This document shows positions 14,604 to 62,413 of a stretch of DNA of 64,000 nt, piece by piece. The notes below the pieces were generated by a model that worked only from the letters and a program-made list of their open reading frames with translations, ran no database searches and was not told the origin of the DNA. Numbering within the stretch: position 1 is the stretch's first letter; each line of letters begins with the position of its first letter. Both the position numbers and the translations under genes were made by a program. The stretch lies in NCBI RefSeq assembly GCF_004010195.1, contig NC_057754.1, forward strand, positions 3,725,728 through 3,789,727, read 5' to 3'. Source of the stretch: Chiloscyllium plagiosum. Lineage: Eukaryota.

Positions 14604-15640
14604 GAAGAGAGCTCGAGACTGTGCTCTCAAGGGTTTTGAAGAATGAGGTTTCATTGAAACTTGAATATTGAAAGGGATATAAAGTGGGTAGATGTAAGTG
14701 CGACAGTTGAGGAGTCTAGAGGGACACAATTCAATAGTAAGTAGGATGCCACTGAAGTCTGAGAAGGAAACATAGAAAACAGTAACAAGGATAGGCCGTT
14801 TGGCCCTTCAGGTTTTCTCTGCTGTTCATTATGATCATGGTTGATATCCAACTCAGTAACCTGTTCCTGCTTTCCCCTTTAGCCTCAAAGTGCTATATCC
14901 AAATCCTCCTCGAAATCAATACAGCATTTTGGCCTCCACTACCTTCTGAGGTACTGACCTCTATTCTCTGGATGAGGAGAAATTACGGGTAAAAGGCATG
15001 ATTGTATTGAGTGGAGGAACGGATTCGATGGGCTGAATGGCCTACTCCAACTCTTGTGTTTCTAGAATCAAGGACGCAGGTGAAACCGAAAGATTAGCAG
15101 GGCCACTTTTTGGAAAGGACGGGGCCCGGAAGGGTTCTGCCTATTTATTTATCCCTCTTGATGCTGTTTGTTGGGGGATACTTGTGTCAAATTTAATTGC
15201 TGTCCTTCAGACATAACTGCACGTTCATAATGCGTCTTTAAATGTAAATAGTTGTAAAGTGCATTTGGGGGCACCCCGGGGTTGTGAAAGGCGTTATATA
15301 AATGCCCAACTCCCTGTGAAGATAGTATGGTGGTTATCATGACTGCTTGACATGCAACAGGGCCCTGGTTCTAAAACAGGCAAAAAAAAAAAATTAGGGA
15401 CCCTCTTGTGGCACGATGGTAGTGACCCTAACCCTGGAACTGGAGGCCCGAGTTCAAGTCCCCCTTCAATAACATCCCTGCCCAGGTTGATTAGAAAAAT
15501 AGGTTTATTTTTATTGTTTTTATTTTTATTATTACAATGTATTTTATACATTTATCGGCCTCTGAGATGTGGGAGGTGTTTGTGTGTCTTTTGCAAAACC
15601 CCTTGCCCTGATTTGATCTTTGCCTTTTTCGCTCTCGCAG

Positions 15641-16008
15641 CTTTGAACCCGCAAGCGGCCCTGTCTCAGGTTCGGGAGCGACAGCGCGTCCTCAACGGGC
15701 AGGAGGAGCCACTGTGTTCCCGCTCCACTCCGGAACTCTCGCTCGAAGCCAGGTCTCTGCCCGCCCCTTGCCAGGAGCCCCCCGAGCTGGTCCCCCCCCG
15801 GGCCGAAGGCGACGCGCCCTTGGGGCCAACCCACCCGGGAGCCCCTCGTGCCGGTGCCCGCCGGGAGGCCGAGCGGGTACTCCTGCAGAGGCTGACGTGG
15901 GCCTGCGGTGAGCTGGAGCGGGCCTGCTCAGTGGAGTACAGCTCTCAGCTCTGCCTCTTGATCAGGAACTGCGCTGACGCGCTGCACAGCTTGAAGCGGC
16001 TGGCCTAG
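15641..16008 (+). CDS. ZNRD2: ZNRD2/SSSCA1 last coding exon
   Basis: Encodes ALNPQAALSQVRE ... LLQRLTWACGELERACSVEYSSQLCLLIRNCADALHSLKRLA*, matching the SSSCA1 C-terminal helical domain. Polypyrimidine/cgcag acceptor. Confidence 0.92.
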
Positions 16009-24611: not shown

Positions 24612-25650
24612 TTAGAGGGATGTGGGCCAAGTGCCGGCAAATGGGACTAGATTCATTTAGGATATCTGGGTCAGCACGGGCAAGTTGGACAGAAGGGTCT
24701 GTTTCCGTCCTGTACATCGCTATGATTATTTATCCCCGTGCTTGTGGGATCTTGCTGTGCGCGACGAGAGGCCTCTTTATTGCCAGCACCTCAGCACAGA
24801 GGTGGAAGAGAGTGTGAGAGGATCGTGGCTAATCTCAGAAATTATTAGCGAAAGCTGGGAGGGGAGTAAAAGATCGTGCAGAAATTACCAGTGGGATTTA
24901 ATACACATACACAAAAAAAATCCTTTTTTTTGTGGAAACAAAACTCAGATGCGGAAATAGCATGAATTTTTAGTCTGGGCTTTGGAGGCCAAATTATTAT
25001 GGGGCCGGACTAGAAGGTGTCGCAAAGAAATTAAAAGTTTGAAAGGAAATAGCCCTCACGCCTTGACGTTGCGTTGGGTCAGTCTTAGGGCGTGTCGGTG
25101 TGTAAACAAAGAAAAGGATCTGTACAAGAGGGGAAACCAGTCCCTTTTTAAACAACAACTCAGAGGATGAAAGATTTGCTCTTTGTGTGTGCGCGGCTGG
25201 AAGAGAGCGAGAGGTTTAGCTTTTAACAAAAAGGAAAGAATTGGAAGTAAAGGGTGAGAGAGAGAGAGAGTGTGAGTGCAAGACTGGTTTCGAACTTGTG
25301 TTCATAGGTTTCCTGGGGCGAGGAGAAGAGAGAGGGGGAGGAAGGGAGGGNNNNNNNNNNNNNNNNNNNNNNNNNNNNNNNNNNNNNNNNNNNNNNNNNN
25401 NNNNNNNNNNNNNNNNNNNNNNNNNNNAGAGGGGGGGAGGAAGGGAGAGAGAGGGGGAGGAAGGGAGAGAGAGGGAGGAAGGGAGAGAGAGAGAGAAGGG
25501 GAGGAAGGGAGAGGGAGAAAGAGGGGGGGAGAGAGAGGAAGAGATTCCTGCAACAAAGAGGAAACTTTGACTGAGATACCAGGCGAAGACACTGCTTGGG
25601 GAAAGACCTTGCTGCATGCACCAGGTAGACAGCTGAGAGAAGGAGAGGGT

Positions 25651-25899
25651 ATGAATGGGAGTCAGGAGGACTCCTCTGGGAGCCTGGTTTCTGGCATTGA
25701 GGGGCTTCCCCCCTTGCCCAAGGGTCTGAGCGGGATCCTCAATTCCAGCGGCGGTTCCTGGAGGGACGTGGAGAGGCTCTACGCCAAGAAGACTATGATC
25801 CAGGATGAGCTGAGCCGGCCCCACTTGGCCACCGAGAAGTTCCTGAGGAACAAGCCGGCCAATCTGGACGCAGCCCTGGCCTTATTGAGGAAGGAGATG
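25651..25899 (+). CDS. FAM89B: FAM89B (LRAP25) exon 1
   Basis: Encodes MNG ... GLPPLPKGLSGILNSSGGSWRDVERLY ... NLDAALALLRKEM, then a gtaag donor. Lies directly downstream of ZNRD2 on the same strand, as in mammals. Confidence 0.93.
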
Positions 25900-26220
25900 G
25901 TAAGCCAAGGCACCTACTGTACACCCCTCCATCCTCCCTCCCTCTCCCTAACCCAACCCAACCCATTGGCAAAGAAAAGTCATAGAGCACCGGGAAGAGA
26001 GGACCGTCGGCCCATCAAGCCCTGCTTTTTTTTTTAGATTACATTCCCTTACAGTGTGGAAACAGGCCCTTAGGCCCAACAAGTCTTTCCTACCCTCCGA
26101 AGAGTAACCCACCCAGACCCATTTCCCTCTGACAAATCCACCTGACACTACAGACAATTTAATAACCATGGGGCAGGAAAATCGACATTTCGGGCAAAAG
26201 CCCTTCAACAGGCTTCATTC

Positions 26221-32510: not shown

Positions 32511-33614
32511 ATTGATCTCTCTCTCACACATATACCACGAGAGTTAGAGTGTGTATGGGGTCCTCCCCACCTAACACAGACACACACAGACTCTCACTGG
32601 GGTGGGCTTGGGGGCGCGCGGATCATGATACTGTACAAACTACAGCTGAACTATTTTCCTTTCCTGTGCATGTACGTATTGGCCTGGAGCTGAGCTCAGC
32701 ACAGGGAGTGCTCTGGACAAGCTGTGCCTGTCCTGGCCTTGTGTGAACAATGTCTTCCCAGTTTGCTTTTGCTCATGCTGTGCCTGAAAGGGCACTTTGT
32801 TTCTTTCTGTCAGATTCAGCACCTGCTGGTGGAAGGCGAGGATTGTGTTTAAGGCCCAGTGGACCTGCAGTCACATCTGCTCCTGTTTATTCAGGCTGTC
32901 CAGCCTGTCCTTGCATCTGGCTCACAGGACATCCTGAATAACCCGCTTACCAGCGGTATAGTTAGTCAGGACAGTTCCCTAAGCCCCCTACCCTTTCCTT
33001 CTAACTTCCATCAGGCAAACTCTCCAGCTGAAAGGTTCTGCATGGACTAACTCCCTGCACTTGCCAAGCTCCTGTGTAGAAGGAACAGCCACGAGGGGCT
33101 TTATGACCCCCCTGCCCCTACCCCCGGGCTCCACCCCATCCCACCTTGACAGTCCAGCCCTTGCTACACCCTCCCTAGCCCAAGCACTCCATTCTGTGCT
33201 TCTGCTGAGCACAGTTTAATCAAGAGCGTTTGAAGACATGGGGTTTGGATAAGCAGGCATCCAGACTGATGCACCCTTCCCTTCCCTCTCCCCTAACCCT
33301 GGGGTCTCCCACCCACAATCGGGAGTGGGACGCCTGGCTGATTTCTCAGGGAGGGGTGGAGATGACCCCTGGCTGATTACCTCTGACCCTGGGGAGAGTG
33401 ATTGGCAGCAGAGGAATCATGGCTAATTCTCCCCTGGGGTCACCGGACAACCGTCGGGAAGACTTCTCCCCGAGAGCCTTGAAAACCAGCTGTGGTCTTC
33501 TGTCGTTGGTGCCAAGGTGGAGGAGGGGGCAGCTCACAATTGTTCCCCCACACCCCTTGGTACGCCAGGTGTGTTTCCCCGCCTCTGCCCGATCTTGTCT
33601 CTCCTCCTCTACAG

Positions 33615-33890
33615 GTAGGCCTGCGACAGCTCGACATGTCCCTCCTCTGCCAACTGTGGTCGCTGCACGAGTCCATTCAGGACTACAAGGGCCTGTACCA
33701 GGACATGACCTCGTCCATGCACTCCTATGCCTCGGAAAATCCCGACTATGATGACGAGGATGAGTTGGAAGCCGACGAGGACGGCTCGGACCGCTGCAAG
33801 GACGACGTGGCGCACAAGAGTCTGAAAGTCCCCCCGACGCAGAACTCCCGGGACAAGTGGCTGCAGGATTCTTTCCACATTACAATATAA
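33615..33890 (+). CDS. FAM89B: FAM89B exon 2 (174-aa protein in total)
   Basis: Encodes VGLRQLDMSLLCQLWSLHESIQDYKG ... RDKWLQDSFHITI*, with a FAM89B-type C-terminus. ctctacag acceptor. Confidence 0.93.
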   Translation, partial: VGLRQLDMSLLCQLWSLHESIQDYKGLYQDMTSSMHSYASENPDYDDEDELEADEDGSDRCKDDVAHKSLKVPPTQNSRDKWLQDSFHITI

Positions 33891-48771: not shown

Positions 48772-49962
48772 TCACTTGGGAGGTGCAAAATGACGTGGAG
48801 CAAGACTGAGCAAGTGCTTTTTCAGGTTCGCTTTTGGATGAGCGGGGGCAGACACAGAGGACACATGCCTCAGACCGGATTCAGCACTCTCCCCCAGGGC
48901 AGGGGCATTTGAGAGGCCCGATCGTACAATCTCTCTCAGGGTAGGGGCGTTTAGCAGGCCGGATTTAGCATTCTTTCGGAGGCTGGGGGTATTTAGCAGG
49001 CCAGATTCAGCACTCTCTCTCGGGGCAGGAGCATCTAGCAGGCCAAATTCAGCACTCCTTCTCAGCAAGGGATCATTCAACAAGCCAGATTCAGCACTCT
49101 TCCTTGGTGAGGGGGATCTCAATAGACCAGCTCGTTGGCTCTGATCCCTGGCAGGGGCACTTGACTGACTAGATTGGGCACGCATTCCCTTAATGAGGGT
49201 ATTTAATAATTTCGATTGGGCGCTTTCTCCCAAGGTGGGGGTATTCAACAGGCCAGGTTGAGGACTCTCTTTAAGCACGGCTGCATTAACTCTGGATTGG
49301 CCCTGCATTCCCAAGGCGAGGGAATTTAACAGGCTGGATTGGTTACTCTCTGCAAAGGCAGGGGTGTTTAACAGACCGGATTGAAACCTCCCTCCAAGGA
49401 TGGGAGCACCTAACTGTTTCGGTTGGGAACTTTCTCCCAGCTCAGAGGTATTTAAGTGAAGGCTCTGTCCTTGGGCAGGAGTATTGATAAGTGAGGGGCG
49501 GGACCTTTTGGCGAAGGCAGGCTTATCCTCCTGAGGCATTTTCCTCTTTGTGGGTTTTCGGTTTTCCAGCTTTGGTGCAGGGGCCGGAGGCAGGCGGAAG
49601 CGGTGGTACAGGGAATTGTTCTTTGAGAGGCTTGGAGGGACAGGATACTGGAGCCGATTGCCCCCACGCACACGATGGGCAGCTTGAGACCCAAGCTGAG
49701 GGCTGGGCGGAACATACTCGCGATAATCGACAGATTGCTGGGTAACACCGTCTGGGCGGTAACGAGTGTAGAGCGACTTTTGCTGGCCGTACCTATCTAG
49801 GGAATCACATGGTGCCCTGGAGCATTCTGCTTCCTGGTGGCTTGATCTTCCAAGCGGTCGAAACTTTTCCACCACACCGCAGACAGATTGTGTCTTGGAT
49901 GGCCGAACCTTAGTCTTAATTCCCTTAAAGTCAGCGAGATCCATCTTGTTAATGGCTTTCAT
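48772..49962 (-). CDS. 396-aa derived RBM14/RBM4-family paralog lacking intact RRMs, with C-terminal 14-aa tandem repeats
   Basis: Long uninterrupted non-TE ORF in an exon with a strong polypyrimidine/cag acceptor (exon starts at 49991). Colinear similarity to exon 2 of the neighbouring RBM gene; basic NLS-like segment RKPTKRK...AKRSRP. Confidence 0.72.
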   Translation of the reverse strand: MKAINKMDLADFKGIKTKVRPSKTQSVCGVVEKFRPLGRSSHQEAECSRAPCDSLDRYGQQKSLYTRYRPDGVTQQSVDYREYVPPSPQLGSQAAHRVRGGNRLQYPVPPSLSKNNSLYHRFRLPPAPAPKLENRKPTKRKMPQEDKPAFAKRSRPSLINTPAQGQSLHLNTSELGESSQPKQLGAPILGGRFQSGLLNTPAFAESNQSSLLNSLALGMQGQSRVNAAVLKESPQPGLLNTPTLGESAQSKLLNTLIKGMRAQSSQSSAPARDQSQRAGLLRSPSPRKSAESGLLNDPLLRRSAEFGLLDAPAPRESAESGLLNTPSLRKNAKSGLLNAPTLREIVRSGLSNAPALGESAESGLRHVSSVSAPAHPKANLKKHLLSLAPRHFAPPK

Positions 49963-51921
49963 TACTTCCTCTTTTGTGTTCTAGGTGCAATCTGAGAGTT
50001 GGGTGGAGTGGGGGTGGGGGGGGGGGGGGAAAGAGAGAGAGATTAATTAATTTCTGGGAAGAGAGCAGATGGCGCTGAGGCAAGGTTGGATCCTAGATCT
50101 TTGTTTGGTTTATGAAAATCTCGTAATGAATCTCTGTAAAACACTGGATGGGTCTCAGCTGGAGCTGCATCAAATTGTGTGCAATCACATCTCAAGGGGG
50201 AACAAGACTGTGGCATTCAACAAGGCTCCTCATGCTAGACTGGTTAGCAAGATTAGATCACATGGAATACAGGGAACATAGTAGAACAGAGCATGACAGC
50301 GCAGTACAGGCCTTTTGGCCCTCGATGTTGCGCTGACCTATGAAATCAATCTAAAGTCAATCTAACGTACACTATTCCATTATCATCAATGTGTTCATCC
50401 GATGCCATTTCAATGCCCTTAGTGTTGGCGAGTCTATGACTGTTGCAGGTAGGGCATTCCACGTCTTTGAGTAAAGAACCTAATTCTGACATCTGTCCTA
50501 TATCTATCACTCCTCAATTCAAAGTTATGTCCCCTTGTGCAAGCCATCACCATCTGGGGAAAAAGGCTCTCACTGTCCACCCTACCTAATCCTCTGAACA
50601 TCTTGTGTGCTTCTACTGAGTTCCCTCTTAACCTTCTTCTAACGAAAATAGCTTCAAAGGTCCCTCAGCCTTCCCTCATAAGACCTCCATACCAGGCAAC
50701 ATCCTGGTAAATCTCCTCTGCACCTTTTCCAATGGTTCCACACCATAATTGCCACTTTTAGAATGCTGCATTCAATTCTGGTCTCCTTGCTATAGGAAAG
50801 AGGTTGTGAAACTTGAAAGAGTTCATAAAAGATTTAAAAGGCTGTTGGCAGGGAGAAGCTGAATCGACAGGGGCTATTTTTCCTGGAGCATTGGAGGCTG
50901 AGGGGTGACCTTATGGTCGTTTATAAAATCACGAGGGACATGGATAGGGTCAATAGACAAGGTCTTTTCCCTTGGGTGGAGAGTCCAAAATGAGGGCAGG
51001 GGTTTAAGGTGAGAGGGGAAAGATTTAAAAGGGACCTAGGGGCAACTTTTTCACACAGCTACATGTATGGAATGAGCTACCACATGAAATGTTGGAGGCT
51101 AGTACAATTACAACATTGAAAACGCATCTGGATGGGTATAATGGTTAGGAAGGATTTAGAGAGATATGGGCCAAATTCTGGCAAATGGGACTGGATTTAT
51201 TACAGTTATCTAGTCAGCATGGATGAATTGGACCGAAGGATCTGGTTCTGTGCTGTACATCTCTATGACTGAGGAAGGATCACTTGACCTGAAACGTTAA
51301 CTTATTTCCCACAGGCAGATGCTGCCAGACCTGCTGAGCTTTTCCAGCAATCTCTACTTATGAAACCCATCTGGTTCACGAATGTCCTTCAGGGACACTT
51401 AACTTCAGACCCACCTCAAAATGGTTGACAGGCGGGCAATTTGGGTCGGTCCAATTATTCAAAGGATGCGTTCATCCACCACCACCTCCAGGGGCAAATA
51501 AGCAAAATGGGGGAGAAATGTTGGGCCTACTCCAAGAGACCCGAGGAAATGGAGAAAGTGAAGATTGCAGACGCTCGAGGTCAGAGGCGAAAAGCGTGAC
51601 GCTGGAAAAACACAGCGGGTCAGGCAGCATCCGAGGAGCAGGACGCTTCGGGCATAAGACCTTAACCAGCAATGCCAGGGTGGGGAAGGAGGGGACTGAG
51701 AAATAGATAGGAATGTTGGGAGGGTGGTAAGGAACCTGGGAAGGCAGATGCACGTTGGGGGAGGGTTTGGAAACTCAGATTTGGGAGACCCGAGGAAGCG
51801 ACAGACAGGCGCCTTCCACAGGAGCAATGGCGACGGGGTCACTGCTGCAGTGACGTCACCGTGAAAGCCCCCTATCTGCCCCAACGGTGGTGTGGGGGAG
51901 GGGAGCAGCGCGACCTCTCAC

Positions 51922-52190
51922 CTCCGACTCAACAAACCGATTCCTTGCGGTCCCTCAGCGGCAGCACGGGGCAAGGGAGGGGGGAGAAAAAGAGGGGTGC
52001 ACTGGAAGAAGAGGTCGTTCACGGCGAGGAACCGAATCCCGGTCTCAATCACGACACCTCTCCCACCCAAAAATGATGCCGCTCCGATCACAACATCATC
52101 CCCGACAGAGAGGAAAACACACGACCCGCTGCAAAGACGACTCAAAATGGCCGCCATTGCCAACCCCACCTTTTAAAAACACGCCATAGA
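51922..52190 (-). other. Putative non-coding first exon of the 396-aa gene
   Basis: Lies in the CpG island, has a YY1-type motif GGCGGCCATTTTG near its start and a donor GAG|GTGAGA at 51922/51921. The TSS is approximate. Confidence 0.5.
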
Positions 52191-53185
52191 CCCGGCCTCC
52201 TCGGTTGAGGGACAGCCCGCGGCACCAATCGATGCGCGGGTACTGGCCAATTAGATTGACGTACCGACATCACTGGCTCGTGGTTGGATTTAATGGCCAT
52301 CAGTCAGGACGAAAAGGCGGGCCGCAATCTCTCGTCGGCAGCCAAGGGGGGAGTATATGTGTGGCAGAAAGCTGGCTATGATTGGACAGCTGGTCTGTCG
52401 GTCAGGAAAGTGGGCGGTATCTGCGTGGGTGTAGGTCGGTCGAGGACTTGACATTCTGATTGGATAGCCGCCATGTCGTTCAAGTGAAGAGGCGAACTCT
52501 TACCACGCAAATACATGTGGAGGAGGGCAAGTTCTTGGCTATTGATTGGGTAAACGGGCTGTCAGCCACAAAAGATAGGCGGTTTTAGCTGCGATTGGGC
52601 TGGAAGATTGTCGGTCACAAGTGGTAGGCGGGTGTGCGCGGGTCGGCGCAGCGTGATTGGTCGCGTCTCCACCCTTTCCGGCTTGTCAGCGTGTGACGAC
52701 GGCCGCGATTGGACAAGCACGGGCCAGCCCTGAGAAGGAACGCGTGTGACTGGCGGGGCGGGAGGAGGCGCCGCCTGATTGGTCGCACCCACCCACCCAC
52801 CCACCCCCCTCCGGATGTCGGCGCGTGCCGACATTTCGCGATTGGACAGCTGGCACCGTCCCTTTTTCGCGGGGCGGGGCGGGGCGGGGTGGCGGTGGAG
52901 ACGGTACGGCCGGATTGGCCGCCTCTCCAGGATAACGGCCGCGATTGGACAGCTGGGGCCGTCACTCAAGACGAGCGCGAGCGGCCGGCCTGGTGGGAGA
53001 AGGCGCTCGGAGGGACGGTTGGAGCGGCCGCCATTTTGTTCGAGATCCCGCCATTCGATCGGGGGGTTAAAAATAAAAAGCCTTTATATCTGAGGCGATT
53101 GGCGTGGGGACTAGGGAGGGGGAGTTATCGATTCGAATCGAGGCGCGTTTTAAAAGATAAAGTGGGTTTGGGGGGGGGGGGAAAA
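52140..53185. promoter_or_regulatory. CpG-island bidirectional promoter
   Basis: High CpG density, about 13 CCAAT/ATTGG boxes, tandem GC boxes at 52871-52890, and outward-facing YY1-type motifs at ~52143 (-) and ~53027 (+). Confidence 0.8.
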
Positions 53186-53516
53186 ATGAAGATCTTCGTG
53201 GGTAATATCCCGAGCGAAGGGACGGTGGACGAGCTGAAGACGCTGTTCGGTTACTACGGCACGGTGCGGGAGTGCGACATCATCCGGCATTACGGCTTCG
53301 TGCACATGGACAGCGCCGAGGAGGCGAACCAGGCCATCGCCGCGCTCAACCAGTACGAGCTGCACGGCCAGAAGCTCAACGTGGCCGAGTCGCGGCCCCG
53401 GCCCGCCGCCGTCACCAAGGTCTACGTCGGGAACCTGGCGGGCGGCTGCAGCAACCAGGAGCTCCGGGCCAAGTTCGAGGAGTACGGCCGGGTGGTGGAG
53501 TGCGACATCGTCAAAG
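53186..53516 (+). CDS. RBM14/RBM4-like RNA-binding protein, exon 1 (RRM1 plus first half of RRM2)
   Basis: Encodes MKIFVGNIP ... YGFVHM ... SRPRP ... KVYVGNL ... ELRAKFEEYGRVVECDIVK; phase-1 donor AAAG|GTAC. Confidence 0.95.
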
Positions 53517-53847
53517 GTACCGCCGGTCTCGGGTGGAGCTCGTTTGTGGGGGGTGGGTGGGGGAAGAGAGAGAGAGAGGGTTTTCCCGCCGCCATGACGC
53601 CTCACAGACCGTTCGGCCCATCGACAGAGCTCACCCCCTTTTTTTCGGGGGGGGCGGGCAATAGTAGGTGATGGTTTAGGAGCAAATTGCTGGAATTCCC
53701 CCAACTGAAAACAAAACATGCTGGAGATCCCACACCCACAGAAAGAGAGAGAGAGAGAGCATGCTCTGTGGTAGGGTCTGCAAGAGGCGCTACAGCAATT
53801 CACCAAGGGTCCTTCCAAACCCACCACTGCCTCCGTGCAGAGAGGTT

Positions 53848-54168
53848 TAGATTAGATTACTTACAATGTGGAAACAGGCCCTTCGGCCCAACAAGTCCAC
53901 ACCGCCCCGCCGAAGCGCAACCCACCCAGACCCATTCCCCTGCATTTAACCCTTCACCTAACACTACGGGCAATTTACCATGGCCAATTCACCCTAACCT
54001 GCACATCTTTGGACTGTGGGAGGAAACCGGAGCACCCGGAGGAAACCCCACGCAGACACGGGGAGAACGTGCAAACTCCACACAGTCAGTCGCCTGAGGC
54101 GGGAATTGAACCCGGGTCTCTGGCGCTGTGAGGCAGCAGTGCTAACCACTGTGCCACCGTGCCGCCCA
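53848..54168 (-). mobile_element. Full-length young HE1-like SINE in RBM intron 1
   Basis: Complete head, core and (TCTAA)n tail on the minus strand. Confidence 0.9.
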
Positions 54169-54418
54169 CTACCACCGTGCCGCCCAGGTGAACATGGGCT
54201 CACCGAAGCATTGAGTACAGTAGGTGAATGGGGAGGGGGGGGTGGGGATGGAGGTGATAGGTCAGAGAGGAGGGTGGGGGGAAGGTAGCAAAGAGTACAG
54301 TGGGGAATGGGGCTGCCTTGAAGAAGTTTTCATTCTCTTGCTCCAAGAATCGCAGGGAGTCTCTACTCTCTGCTACTTTCTCCCCACCCCCACCCTCCTC
54401 TCATTTATCTCTCGATCC

Positions 54419-54446
54419 CTGATGAAGGGCTTTTGCCCGAAACGTC
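54419..54446 (+). ncRNA. Minimal hammerhead core in a Penelope pLTR remnant (~54200-54545)
   Basis: CTGATGAAGGGCTTTTGCCCGAAACGTC, identical to the 26221 copy; in the sense orientation within RBM intron 1. Confidence 0.68.
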
Positions 54447-57050
54447 GATTTTTCCTGCTCCTCGGATGCTGCCTGACCAGTTGTGCTTTTTCCAGCGTTG
54501 CTCTAATCTAGACTCTGGTTTCCAGCATTTGCAGTCATTGTTTTCACCCCTTTGGCCCAAACTGTGCTGACCAAAACGCCCATCCACGCTAACCCCGTTA
54601 CCATGCACTTGGCTCATATCCTTCCCGACCTTTCCTAATGTCACCAGTTCCTTCGGTGTCGCTGGGTCAAAATCCTGGATTCCTCTCCTTTAATGGAGGG
54701 GGGGGGTGTTGTTGTTGGACTGGGGTGGTCAAAGTCAGAAATCCCACAGCACAAGGTTGTAGTCCAACAGGTTTATTTGAATTCACAAGTTTTCAGAGCG
54801 TAGCTTGTTCACCCGATGAAGCGGCTATGATCCAAAAGCTTGTACCTTCAGAGCAATTTGTTGGACGATAATCTGGTGTTGTGTGATTTCTGATTTTGAC
54901 CCTCCCTAGTGGGATGTGGGCTGCACTGGTTCAAGAAAGCAGTTCACCACAACCTTCTCGAGGACAACTAAGTACGGGAAATAAATGTGTGGCTCAGCCA
55001 GCAACTTCCATGTCTCTTAAGTGAATTTTTTAAAAAAGTGTCTGATTCTGATGGGTTGCTTCATATGCTTGCCTTTATTGGTCAGTGCATTGAATATAGG
55101 GGTTGGACGGTCCTGTTGCAGCTCTACAGGGCATCAGTGAGGCCACTTTTGAAATACTGTGTTCAGTTCTGGCCCCTCCTCCACGGGAAGAGTGTGGTGA
55201 AACTTGAAATAGTTCAGAAACGATTTACAAGGATGTTGCTCGGATTGGAGGGTTTGCGCTTCAGGGAAATACTGAACAGATAGGATGTGTTTTCCCTGGA
55301 GTGTTGGGGGCAGAGGGTAACCTTATTATAGAACTTTATAAAGTGGCATGGCGGTTTGGTGGATAGCACTGCTGCATCAGCACTGGGGATCTGGATTCAG
55401 TTCCACCCTTGCTACAACTGTTCTGTGTGGAGTTTGTGTGTTCTCCCTGGGTCAAAATCCTGGATTCCTCTCCTTAATGGGGGTGCTCCAGTTTCCTTCT
55501 ACAGTCCAAAGCTGTGCAGGTTTGGTGGATTGACCATGCTGACATAGTGTCTAGGAATATGCAGGTGAGGTGGGTTGGTCATGGGAAATGGAGGGTTAGA
55601 GGGATAGGGTAAGCATTGGGATGCTCTTCAGGGAGTCTGTGTGGACTCGATGGGCCGAATGGCCTGCTTCAACACTGGGGATTCTAAAATCATGAGGGGC
55701 ATAGATAGGATGAATAGTCAAGGTCCTTCTTTCAGGATAGGAGAGTCCAAAACTAGAGGGCATAGGTTTAAGGAGAGGGGAAAGATTTAAAAGAGACTTA
55801 AGGGGCAATTTTTTCATGTAGCGGATGGTGTCTGTATGGAGGCTGATACAATTACACCATTAAAAGGCATCTGTATGTGTTCATGAATGGAAGGGTTTTG
55901 ATGTATATGGGCCAAATGCTTGCAAATGGGAATTGATTGATTTAGGATATCTGGTCAGAATGAGCAAATTGGACCAAATGATTTGTTTCTATGCTGGACA
56001 GCTTTAGGACTCTTAAGAGTCATCTAAACTCAACATTAGGTTGCTCTCTCTCAGTGGATGCTTCGTGACCCACACTTTTTTTTAATTTTCACCCAGAGGT
56101 TTGTTTGATGTCTGCAAAGTAACAAATCAAACTCACTGCAAGGCTTGCTGAGGGTTTATTCATATTGCGAAATTACCCAAAATAACTGCTGATGCTATAA
56201 ATCAGCAACAAAAACAGACATTGCTGGAAAAGCTCAGTATCTGTGGAGAGCAATCAGAGTTAACAGTTCTGAGGAAGGGTCGCTCAACCTATAAATGTTA
56301 ACTGATGCTGCCAGACCTGCTTAGCTTTTCCAGCAACTTTTTTTGTCCTGAATTGTTTTTGTGGACAACTTTGCAGCACAAATACAGACTGTTCTGACAA
56401 TGTGTTCATGCAATATCTAGTGCTGTTCAGAATGTACTTCATTTTGTTCTTCCTTGGCCTGATTTTTTTTAAAAAAAATTATATATTTAAAAGTAAATTT
56501 ACATTTATTCATAAATCTCTACATATACACTGTCACAAATGTAGTTTGGTTCTGTATAGTAGCATATTATGTCAACAAACATTTTGAGATTAACTCTCTC
56601 CCAAAAAAACCAAAGGCATCTCTTAATCGGACAAGACTATATTTATACGCACTGGGCATGCCCGATAACTGAGTGCCCCCCCCCCAATTAACTTTGGCAT
56701 GAAGACCTCAAACAGTGATCTTTCAACACTGCACCTTGGTGAATCTGCCCCAAGCTTTAGAATGTCCCTCAGCAGTTAGTCTTGGACATCGGAATGTACC
56801 TGTTTGCAGCACTCGATTGAGGTCAGTTTCTTGTTCTGGAACTCCAACATGTTTTCAGAAGACCACGTTTTGGGCAGACCAAAGAGCATCTTTCACCGAG
56901 TTGATGGTCCCCCAGGTGCAGACAGGCCTGGTAGCGATGGGTATCTGGTTGGTGTAGCAACAGCTGTTGGGTGTGAGGCCCTTCTCTTTGCTAGTTGCAG
57001 TAATGAAAAGACTTTACTAACATCTAAGATGTTGTCTTTTTACTTTTTAG

Positions 57051-57540
57051 ACTATGCTTTTGTGCACATGGAGAAGGAGGAAGATGCAATGCAAGCTATT
57101 GCCAGTCTGGATAATCAAGAATTCAATGGGAACAAGCTTCGGGTACAGCTCTCCCGGTCAACCTATGGGAAGTCTGGTGGGCAACGGGATGTGTGCCAAC
57201 GTTGTGGGAGGCAGGGTCACCAGGCCCGAGATTGCCATTCAGCACGCTATAATCAGTATAGCCAGTACCAGTACCAGGCTCAATATTACCCCTCTTACTA
57301 TTCATACTACGATTACGATTATGGCCAAGGTTCCTATTACGATTATTACGAAGATTATCAGACCGCAAGTGCCGCTGCAGCTTACACACCACTTGAATAC
57401 GTGAGGGAGAGGAGCCCCAACCGGTTGGGCACATCCGTAGTAGGGGCCAACAACTGCACCCTATACGAACGTACCCGCCTGTCACCACTCACCGTGCCAA
57501 AATATCAAACTGAGAAATTCATAGACGATAGCATCAGCAG
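57051..57540 (+). CDS. RBM14/RBM4-like exon 2 (rest of RRM2, CCHC knuckle, Tyr-rich region)
   Basis: Encodes DYAFVHMEKEEDAMQAI ... VQLS, CQRCGRQGHQARDC, a YQYQAQYYPSYYSYYDYDY tract, RERSP and YERTRLSP. ttttag acceptor and CAG|GTATGT donor. Confidence 0.95.
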
Positions 57541-59317
57541 GTATGTATCTGCTCCAGACCAAAAACCCAGGGAGTCAAAGGGGGACTTCGAGGCTTCTCA
57601 ACTGGGGGTTGATGGTTTTAGTGGTGGGGTGGGCAGTTCAGCCTAACCTGTTGTTAATTTTTACATGTCTCTCCATTTCCTCAGGGAATTACTAGCTGTC
57701 CCTTGAACATTCTTACTTGGGCAGTGCCCTGTTTTTGGAGGGATAGTGTCAGCTTGGACATCTTGCAGGCTCTGCACTAAGTAATGCAGTTGCCAAGCAC
57801 TGCCACAGAACTATGTATGCAGTGTTGATAGGCGTGGAGGCCACCTTCCTGCTAACCATGGATGCTTTTTCCTCTTTTGGACATAAAATGGCAAAATACT
57901 TCTGTGTTGACTGTGCAGTTCAGGGGAATTTGGGGGAATAACTGTAGAAAAAATTGTATCCTTCATTTTAAACCATGCAAACTAGAGTGAGACAGCTGGC
58001 AGCTTTGCAGCTTCCAGAATCTTTGTGGCTGTGGTTGTGCCTGGTGCGTGTGTTGTGAGCTGTGTTAAGATAAGGATGGTGATATTGTGGGATGAGTGCA
58101 CAACTGTTGCTCTTCCAGAGAGCTAGAAGCTGCTGGACTGTGCAAGGTTATAGTCCATGGAGTTAATACCCTGTGCGTAACCCTATGCAGTACACCTAAA
58201 AATTGTTGGCTCATTGGAACAATCAGTCTGTCAAGTCAAGACCCCTTCATGTTGAAAATCCTTCCCTATTCCAAGGTCTTAGAGATAAAACAGATTTGTT
58301 TACATGGTACCAAGGATAAAGTTATTTCTGGTCAGAACAGCAAAGCTGCTGAGATTATTCTCCATTGAGCAGAGAACTTCAAATCCACCCTACTCCCCCT
58401 TAATCAAGATTTGATAAGTGAGGTGAGACTTGTTTGGAGAATTGACATAGACATGAGCAGCAGAGTGGCCTCCTCCTGGATTTAAAAAACAGCAGCATGA
58501 TAATTGAAACAAGGCTGCTGAGTGAATGTTGGTGAATGGAGAAAGATTTTGCTGTCTGACTGCACATTGTCACTCAGACCACTGCTCAGTTTTATCAAAA
58601 GTATCTCTCTTATTCCACAAGCGCAAATGAGATTTGGATGGAGCTGCCAATGTTAATGATTTCAGGGACTTTTGCTGATTTTACCCCCTTCGTCACCACC
58701 ACCGCATACCTGTTCCTCTGAAAAAGTAATGACTATCTCCAATAAGAGACAATCTAGCCACTGCCCCATGATATTCAATAGTGTTGCCATCGCTGAATCT
58801 CCCACTGTCAACATTCTGGGGGTTACCATTGACCAGGAACTCAGTTGGACTTGTCATATAAATGGTAGTTACAAGAGCATTTCAGAGGCTATGAATCCTG
58901 CACCAAGTAACTTACCGTCTGCCCACTATCTATAAGGCACAAGTCATGTGTGATGGAATACTCCCCACTTGCCTGGATGAGTGCAGCTTCAAAATACTGA
59001 GGAAGCTTGACACCACCATTCAAGACAAAGCAGCCTCACTTGATTGGCACCGCATCCACTCCCTCCACCATCAGTGTTCATTAGTAGTGTGTATTACCTG
59101 CAAGGTATGCTGCTGAAATTCAATAAAAATCTTTTAGACAACACCTTCCAAACCCACACCCTGTACCATCTAAAGGACAAGGGCAGCAGAAACATGAGAA
59201 TGCTATGATCTGCAAGTTTCCCTCCAAGACACTCAACATTCTGATTAGAATATATATCACAATTCCTTCAGTATCACTGGTTCAAAATCCTGGAACCATT
59301 GTTTATCTGCCTATAGG

Positions 59318-62361: not shown

Positions 62362-62413
62362 GTATGATCAGTTTGACTACGATAATACTACCGACACCCG
62401 CTATGCCCAATGA
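62362..62413 (+). CDS. RBM14/RBM4-like exon 3, coding part (290-aa protein in total)
   Basis: tttctctcatag acceptor; phase 2 completes Arg, then YDQFDYDNTTDTRYAQ*; locally CpG-rich. Confidence 0.75.

Follow-up and report, generated by a model that had tools for sequence, protein, structure and literature searches.

An inverted partial copy of an RBM4-type gene as a candidate lineage-restricted gene of carpet sharks

Introduction

What is the origin of the 396-codon open frame that lies head to head with an RNA-binding protein gene in Chiloscyllium plagiosum, and is it a gene in its own right? The frame occupies positions 48772..49962 on the minus strand (ATG at 49962, stop at 48772) of a stretch of 64,000 nucleotides, here called the window (contig NC_057754.1 of assembly GCF_004010195.1, positions 3,725,728 to 3,789,727), and would encode, in one coding exon, a protein with a net charge of +30. 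We refer to this protein and its gene as the paralog, and to the neighbouring RBM4-type gene on the plus strand as the parent. An earlier note on this DNA had described the frame as a hidden paralog that had discarded the RNA-binding domains of its neighbour.

New genes are known to arise by partial duplication and capture of a bidirectional promoter, with domain loss and repeat expansion. In the family concerned here, RBM14/CoAA combines two RNA recognition motifs (RRMs) with a long Tyr/Gln-rich activation domain, and RBM4 is described as having two RRMs, a CCHC zinc knuckle and an RD/ERSP site (PMC3602429). The reading that we favour, and consider somewhat probable, is that the frame is a partial inverted duplicate of the parent, divergently transcribed from the CpG island of the parent and encoding a nuclear protein that is basic and disordered and does not bind RNA in a sequence-specific way.

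Results

Residues 1-136 of the paralog (49555..49962, minus strand) were colinear with exon 2 of the parent (57051..57540, plus strand), with an identity of about 30%. The local BLOSUM62 score was 101, against shuffle maxima of 59 for the whole protein and 63 for the first 145 residues (0/2000 shuffles in each case). A profile built on nine parent-ortholog sequences scored the paralogs of four species at 19.6-31.3 bits, compared with 5.5 bits for the best of 2000 shuffles, and the DNA alignment of paralog and parent scored 156 against a shuffle maximum of 114 (0/300). When five blocks were tested singly, three were significant (residues 1-30, 0/1000 shuffles; 29-55, 8/1000; 109-145, 0/1000), and the two middle blocks were not (930/1000 and 890/1000 shuffles reached their scores). 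The homology thus stood well above shuffled controls, and the colinearity proposed in the earlier note was borne out, except that two of its motif pairings gave way to others: YREYVPP paired with YYDYYEDY of the parent, and RVRGGNRL with RERSPNRL; the earlier pairing of YREYVPP was out of register. Among the RBM4/14 regions tested, the paralog matched that of its neighbour alone, and it was single copy in the genome; no copy of the last exon of the parent was found downstream of it above shuffles (16/60 reached the best match). Judged by homology, the frame is, as had been proposed, an inverted duplicate of the second exon of the parent.

Little of the RNA-binding apparatus was left in this copy. 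RRM1 and the RNP1 strand of RRM2 were gone, and residues 1-136 comprised the last helix and strand of RRM2, a broken zinc knuckle and a Tyr-depleted low-complexity part. The first two zinc-ligand cysteines were missing in all four orthologs, in agreement with the earlier description, while the histidine and the last cysteine were retained. RERSP was absent from the aligned place in 4/4 paralogs, the LYxRxRL motif was kept, and the 396 residues contained 7 tyrosines compared with 22 in the parent. The protein matched no Pfam family at E<=1, a PDB profile search gave 0 matches at E<=10, and an Atlas search with the whole protein gave no result; the same search with the Stegostoma N-terminus gave an RRM lead with a score of 0.79, below the acceptance bar. 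By homology the paralog descends from the RBM4/14 family, and none of the defining features tested marks it as a functional RBM4 or RBM14.

The 29 nt from the acceptor to the ATG (49963..49991, minus strand), a predicted piece of the 5' untranslated region, were a frameshifted remnant of the RNP1 strand. The in-frame TAG held responsible earlier for the loss of RNP1 was present (49983-49981), and the remnant was itself frameshifted, reading L-H-L-E (V-H-M-E in the parent) outside the main frame. The paralog acceptor (49991) lay 10 nt nearer to a common TGCAC than that of the parent, and 1 nt was inserted before the ATG. The phase 1 that both acceptors have in common, to which attention had been drawn, is therefore a coincidental by-product of shifts of -10 and +1 nt, out of register with the parent, and says nothing of a conserved intron.

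Upstream of this acceptor we predicted, from the DNA alone, an intron 1 with a C-rich pyrimidine tract before the acceptor (49992..51921, minus strand) and a non-coding exon 1 (51922..52190, minus strand). The donor at 51922 (GAG/GTGAGA) was the top-scoring minus-strand donor in 49992-57000, scored with a frequency matrix. No RRM was detected in the putative exon 1, as claimed before; no RRM remnant was found in it or in any minus frame of 49992-53000 (61-133/200 shuffles reached the score), and it had no detectable homology with exon 1 of the parent. The predicted 5' ends of the two genes lay on opposite strands across a CpG island of about 1 kb (52190..53185), a candidate bidirectional promoter with an observed/expected ratio of about 1.0-1.2, GC boxes and no TATA. 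The island contained ATTGG boxes (11 on the plus and 2 on the minus strand), and YY1-like elements were close to both predicted 5' ends. We also observed a dense CCAAT-box array at 52225-53102, several members of which had a common GATTGGACAGCTG core, each reading ATTGG toward the nearer gene. A mirror duplication of the promoter halves was suggestive by eye and was rejected, being reached by 30-179/500 dinucleotide shuffles.

Exon 1 contained one ATG in strong context, at 52157 (GCAATGG; G at -3 and +4), within a palindromic YY1-like element. Spliced to 49991, it would open a 92-codon out-of-frame open reading frame (ORF) that traverses the L-H-L-E remnant and stops just past the main ATG; its exon-1 part had no Pfam match. 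In-frame use of this ATG was rejected, as 0/3 nearby acceptors tested connected it to the main frame.

The DNA alignment extended from the RNP1 remnant beyond the intron-2 donor of the parent, whose GT aligned with GA at about 49527, and a predicted bipartite nuclear localisation signal (residues 139-155; 49498..49548, minus strand), absent from the parent and found by a motif scan, spanned this site. We infer that the paralog corresponds to a read-through form of the parent. In the parent itself the exon-2 frame continues for 35 codons into intron 2 (57541-57646, plus strand; stop at 57646), and for its orthologs in Mustelus and rays both spliced and read-through models exist, the read-through tails being longer than that of the parent; two C-terminal isoforms of the parent gene look conserved.

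Residues 192-372 (48847..49389, minus strand) consisted of about 13 degenerate repeats of 42 nt or 14 residues, of the type S-A-x-S-G-L-L-N-x-P-x-L-R-E, with the youngest core at 48871-49100 (Tandem Repeats Finder: period 42, 5.5 copies, score 190). The units were in register, no second copy of the array was found in the genome, and intron 2 of the parent held no detectable source of the 42-nt unit (not above shuffles, 82/300). The earlier reading of the frame had overlooked this tail, the newest part of the protein. The protein contained seven LLxxP motifs, three of them LLNTP, and each of the four orthologs had 1-3 LLNTP/LLDTP motifs. AlphaFold gave no confident fold (mean predicted local distance difference test, pLDDT, 38.8; 4-row alignment).

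The exact protein was present in NCBI, UniRef and nr. Orthologs were found in Chiloscyllium punctatum (GCC21275.1/XP_072407138.1, 95% identity), Hemiscyllium ocellatum (XP_060711762.1, 93%) and Stegostoma tigrinum (XP_048380948.1, 70%), and the three are recorded as 'uncharacterized' or 'hypothetical'; the gene was not hidden, as it and these orthologs were already database entries. The models of all four species begin at the same Met, and over residues 1-340 the orthologs differ in length by whole codons (gaps of 4, 3 and 1 residues, plus one additional repeat unit). The statement that the frame had been kept open therefore held for at least 340 codons in 4/4 annotated carpet sharks. Word-based protein searches near the query length (8000 and 137 candidates) returned the same three clusters only; longer and shorter forms of the paralog fell outside them, and the absence from other lineages is accordingly weak. 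The literature searched contained no paper on this gene, which supplements and subscription journals outside that scope may list, and 0 papers mentioned any of the four identifiers. Our verdict from the sequence comparison is that this is probably a lineage-restricted gene, born by partial duplication and domain loss, which would give an 'uncharacterized' protein an origin.

Several observations weigh against the favoured reading. Beyond about codon 340 the Stegostoma model departs from the frame, and its final ~20 residues correspond to the window DNA read in frame +2; either the C-terminal ~55 residues are dispensable or the assembly is in error. No whale-shark record was among the matches, in a protein search that covers annotated open frames and to which broken copies are invisible. 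The nuclear location claimed earlier agreed with the predicted signal in 3/4 orthologs, and the Stegostoma protein did not match the pattern. A low pLDDT on a 4-row alignment does not prove disorder, and exact LLPTP or [SG][IL]LGxxP (the PRI pattern) had 0 matches in the four orthologs. An overlapping ORF that starts upstream in strong context lowers translation of the main frame, and the ATG at 52157, if within the mRNA, could act in this way. The identity to Stegostoma over residues 1-340 (251/340, 74%) is what neutral change at about 0.15 per site predicts. The median synonymous divergence (dS) between whale and zebra sharks is given as 0.06-0.11, with a ratio of nonsynonymous to synonymous divergence (dN/dS) of 0.17-0.33 (PMC13100897); as that split is younger and its dS already reaches these values, the dN/dS of the orthologs may be about 0.6-1. 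We infer from these values that the gene changes at several times the median rate of the genome, and that outside its N-terminal part this rate may be close to neutral. Ortholog frameshifts or a dN/dS near 1 had been named beforehand as signs against the gene, and the late Stegostoma frameshift is in part such a sign. Among the annotated frames, and with that frameshift excepted, the disabled frame and neutral evolution of a pseudogene were not found.

Weak constraint of this kind would also be expected if the frame were a translated, barely constrained by-product of the bidirectional promoter of the parent. Nothing beyond an intact frame or the first ~140 residues would then be of consequence, and the tail would be a minisatellite that stays in frame and has no docking role. 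The identity of the repeats to Stegostoma (103/150) fits neutral drift, and the terminal frameshift of Stegostoma is in line with this explanation; the better conservation of residues 1-136 (110/136; Fisher p 0.02) speaks for the favoured reading. The 42-nt units alter copy number without breaking the frame, and their ratio of nonsynonymous to synonymous differences (pN/pS) was only marginally below the neutral null (52/1000 and 64/1000). However, 17/18 dyad leucines were retained in Stegostoma, a count reached in 8-189/1000 simulations depending on the assumed divergence, and the units varied synonymously at Leu, Pro, Asn and Gly codons. The coding frame alone was stop-free over all 13 units, compared with 4-12 stops in the other five frames, and it had the lowest pN/pS of the frames. 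We consider the by-product explanation unlikely, though deserving of serious attention.

The age of the duplication bears on a second alternative. Trees, from which P0011, P0015, P0016, P0018 and P0019 were left out, grouped the paralog clade with the parent of the window itself (supports 87/86 and 89/86, not firm), and a placement of the paralog outside elasmobranchs was borderline rejected (p-AU 0.044). The start Met was common to the paralog and the parent of the window only; the other parent orthologs have Ile. Between parent and paralog, dS was 1.1-1.4 and dN 0.6-0.9 (dN/dS 0.49-0.66, with 95% ranges of 0.17-0.99 and 0.27-1.07). Taken at published shark rates, this dS suggests either that the duplication is much older or that the local mutation rate is high. 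A safe bracket is that the duplication is older than the split of Hemiscylliidae and Stegostoma; carpet-shark families other than the whale-zebra pair are reported to have split before the K-Pg boundary (PMC8529718).

The paralog stem measured about 3 changes per column; the crown had about 0.25, and the parent and ray orthologs were 0.1-0.2 apart. A stem of this length might mark a positively selected reproductive (germline) protein that changed in a burst once it was duplicated and kept evolving fast under selection for novelty, like testis-restricted young genes. A single coding exon and a basic, Ser-rich product are an established pattern of young germline proteins and are found here, and the dN/dS of the orthologs would reach or pass 1 if the local dS were about 0.1. 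However, the dN/dS between parent and paralog gave no sign of dN above dS, the synonymous sites were equally diverged, so that the length of the stem can be put down to age or mutation rate, and the promoter resembles a housekeeping CpG island. We regard a germline role as quite improbable.

Least credible among the alternatives is a non-coding divergent transcript or silent pseudogene, in which the 92-codon upstream ORF captures ribosomes and, in slow-evolving shark genomes, chance has preserved the long frame: sharks do evolve slowly, and with each of the three nearby acceptors tested the ORF from 52157 runs across the main start in another frame, but only about 1% of neutral runs stayed stop-free at the observed divergence (50/5000 at d 0.14 and 22/5000 at d 0.16), none did so with frameshifts allowed (0/2000; 354 codons, assumed indel rate), and the dS between parent and paralog implies a frame open through a long divergence. 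Selection seems to keep the frame open, and the overall constraint is weak.

The coding part of exon 1 of the parent (53186..53516, plus strand) encodes RRM1 and the first half of RRM2 (Pfam RRM_1, E 2.3e-25). Exon 2, the source of the duplicate, encodes the remainder of RRM2, the CCHC knuckle (Pfam zf-CCHC, 20.2 bits, slightly below the cut-off of 20.8), the Tyr-rich part and RERSP, and the last coding exon (62362..62413, plus strand) corresponds to the C-terminal end of Mustelus model X2 (P0006). In Mustelus and rays the exon-2 region of the parent has orthologs at 75-86% identity, most of which go by the name RBM4/4B-like. With RRM2 of the Mustelus ortholog as PDB query, the best match was 2dgt, 'RNA-binding protein 30' (101 bits), and RBM14 scored 89.5. 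The intron inside RRM2 is what we take to be an RBM14-like layout. The GC content at third codon positions was 0.95 in exon 1 (53186-53515) and 0.52 in exon 2 (57051-57540).

Elsewhere in the genome we observed a second divergent head-to-head pair of RBM4/14-like loci about 13.5 kb apart (L014-L015; G000:C45:7643660-7644440, minus strand, and 7657900-7658520, plus strand), each with two RRMs in one unbroken frame and similar Pro-rich ends, and with no zinc knuckle seen by eye. Three more RBM4-type loci had another intron layout (L018-L023; C45:5.11 Mb, minus; C37:20.26 Mb, plus; C37:22.67 Mb, minus); at C45:5.11 Mb and C37:20.26 Mb the following exon encodes a CCHC knuckle and RDRSP. With the second divergent pair among these loci, inverted duplication recurs in the family.

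In the rest of the window, two exon-like open stretches on the plus strand (33483-33890 and about 25630-25930) had no Pfam match at E<=0.01 and presumably belong to a FAM89-type gene. A 221-codon open stretch at 15343-16008 (plus strand) with the hydrophobic segment FLLFLFLLLQCIL had no Pfam match and is possibly an exon of a membrane protein. The Pfam searches of other window frames covered two frames and part of a third, without matches.

Discussion

On the favoured reading, the copy of exon 2 would have landed beside the CpG-island promoter of the parent and been transcribed divergently from it, with a newly arisen non-coding exon at its 5' end. An internal Met of RRM2 would have turned into the start codon, and with the loss of the intron-2 donor the frame would have run on into former intron, where the 42-nt unit expanded and the nuclear signal arose. 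The repeated L-L-x-x-P motifs would let the protein work by contacting other proteins and not by reading RNA. More speculatively, other nuclear RNA-binding proteins could dock on the repeats in a multivalent fashion, much as with the Leu-Leu peptides of SETD2 and RAVER1, and the product, throttled by the upstream ORF, present at a low level and restricted to some tissues, could modulate assemblies of splicing factors.

RBM4/Lark is one of the closest known systems: residues 1-136 descend from exon 2 of the adjacent member, and the retained part corresponds to the C-terminal domain of RBM4. The paralog differs in lacking RRM1, RNP1 of RRM2, two cysteines and RERSP, and in adding a basic signal and a 14-residue repeat tail. 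The C-terminal domain of RBM4 is reported to suffice alone for nuclear-body targeting (PMC3602429, PMC4267627), and by analogy this fits a stand-alone remnant, though the phosphosite and the tyrosines are gone. RBM14/CoAA belongs to the same gene family, at a locus described as a source of rearranged products of neighbouring paralogs, such as the conjoined CoAA-RBM4 protein CoAZ (PMC4267627). CoAZ is described as keeping an RNA-binding domain and arising by read-through splicing of tandem genes (PMC4267627), whereas the paralog is a separate inverted gene. The features of RBM14/CoAA are also wanting in the paralog, with no RRM and few tyrosines, and the parent differs from RBM14 in its zinc knuckle and in the names of its orthologs.

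The repeat tail invites comparison with the SETD2 SHI motif (LLPTP; hnRNP L/LL) and the RAVER1 PRI motifs (PTB). The paralog likewise repeats LL dyads before Pro in a predicted disordered chain, but without the exact LLPTP or PRI pattern, and as a 14-residue periodic array. The LL peptides of SETD2 and RAVER1 are reported to bind RRM2 of hnRNP L and PTB on its back surface (10.1101/2021.05.22.445248), and a docking of LLxxP on these RRM2 surfaces is, by analogy, a lead only; that residues flanking the motif decide SETD2 binding, according to the same source, tells against it. In its fullest form, the lead would make this RBM4 exon-2 copy without RNA recognition, with its ~13 Leu-Leu docking repeats from former intron, a multivalent protein, coupled to the parent through the promoter, that serves hnRNP L/PTB-type proteins as a decoy or scaffold and tunes the splicing network of the parent; we consider this a long shot.

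Gene birth by partial duplication is a further process that the locus resembles. The paralog has in common with it an inverted partial copy, a predicted new first exon, an internal Met, intron read-through, lineage restriction and fast evolution, and differs in discarding the defining domains of the parent while keeping its diverged low-complexity half. The locus would thus offer a readable case of gene birth beside the parent, with a frameshifted RNP1, an internal start, a lost splice donor and a repeat expansion. As shark genomes evolve slowly, a gene so far from its RNA-binding parent is unusual, and if it is true that the repeats dock on splicing factors, an RNA-binding protein would here have been converted into a protein-binding regulator.

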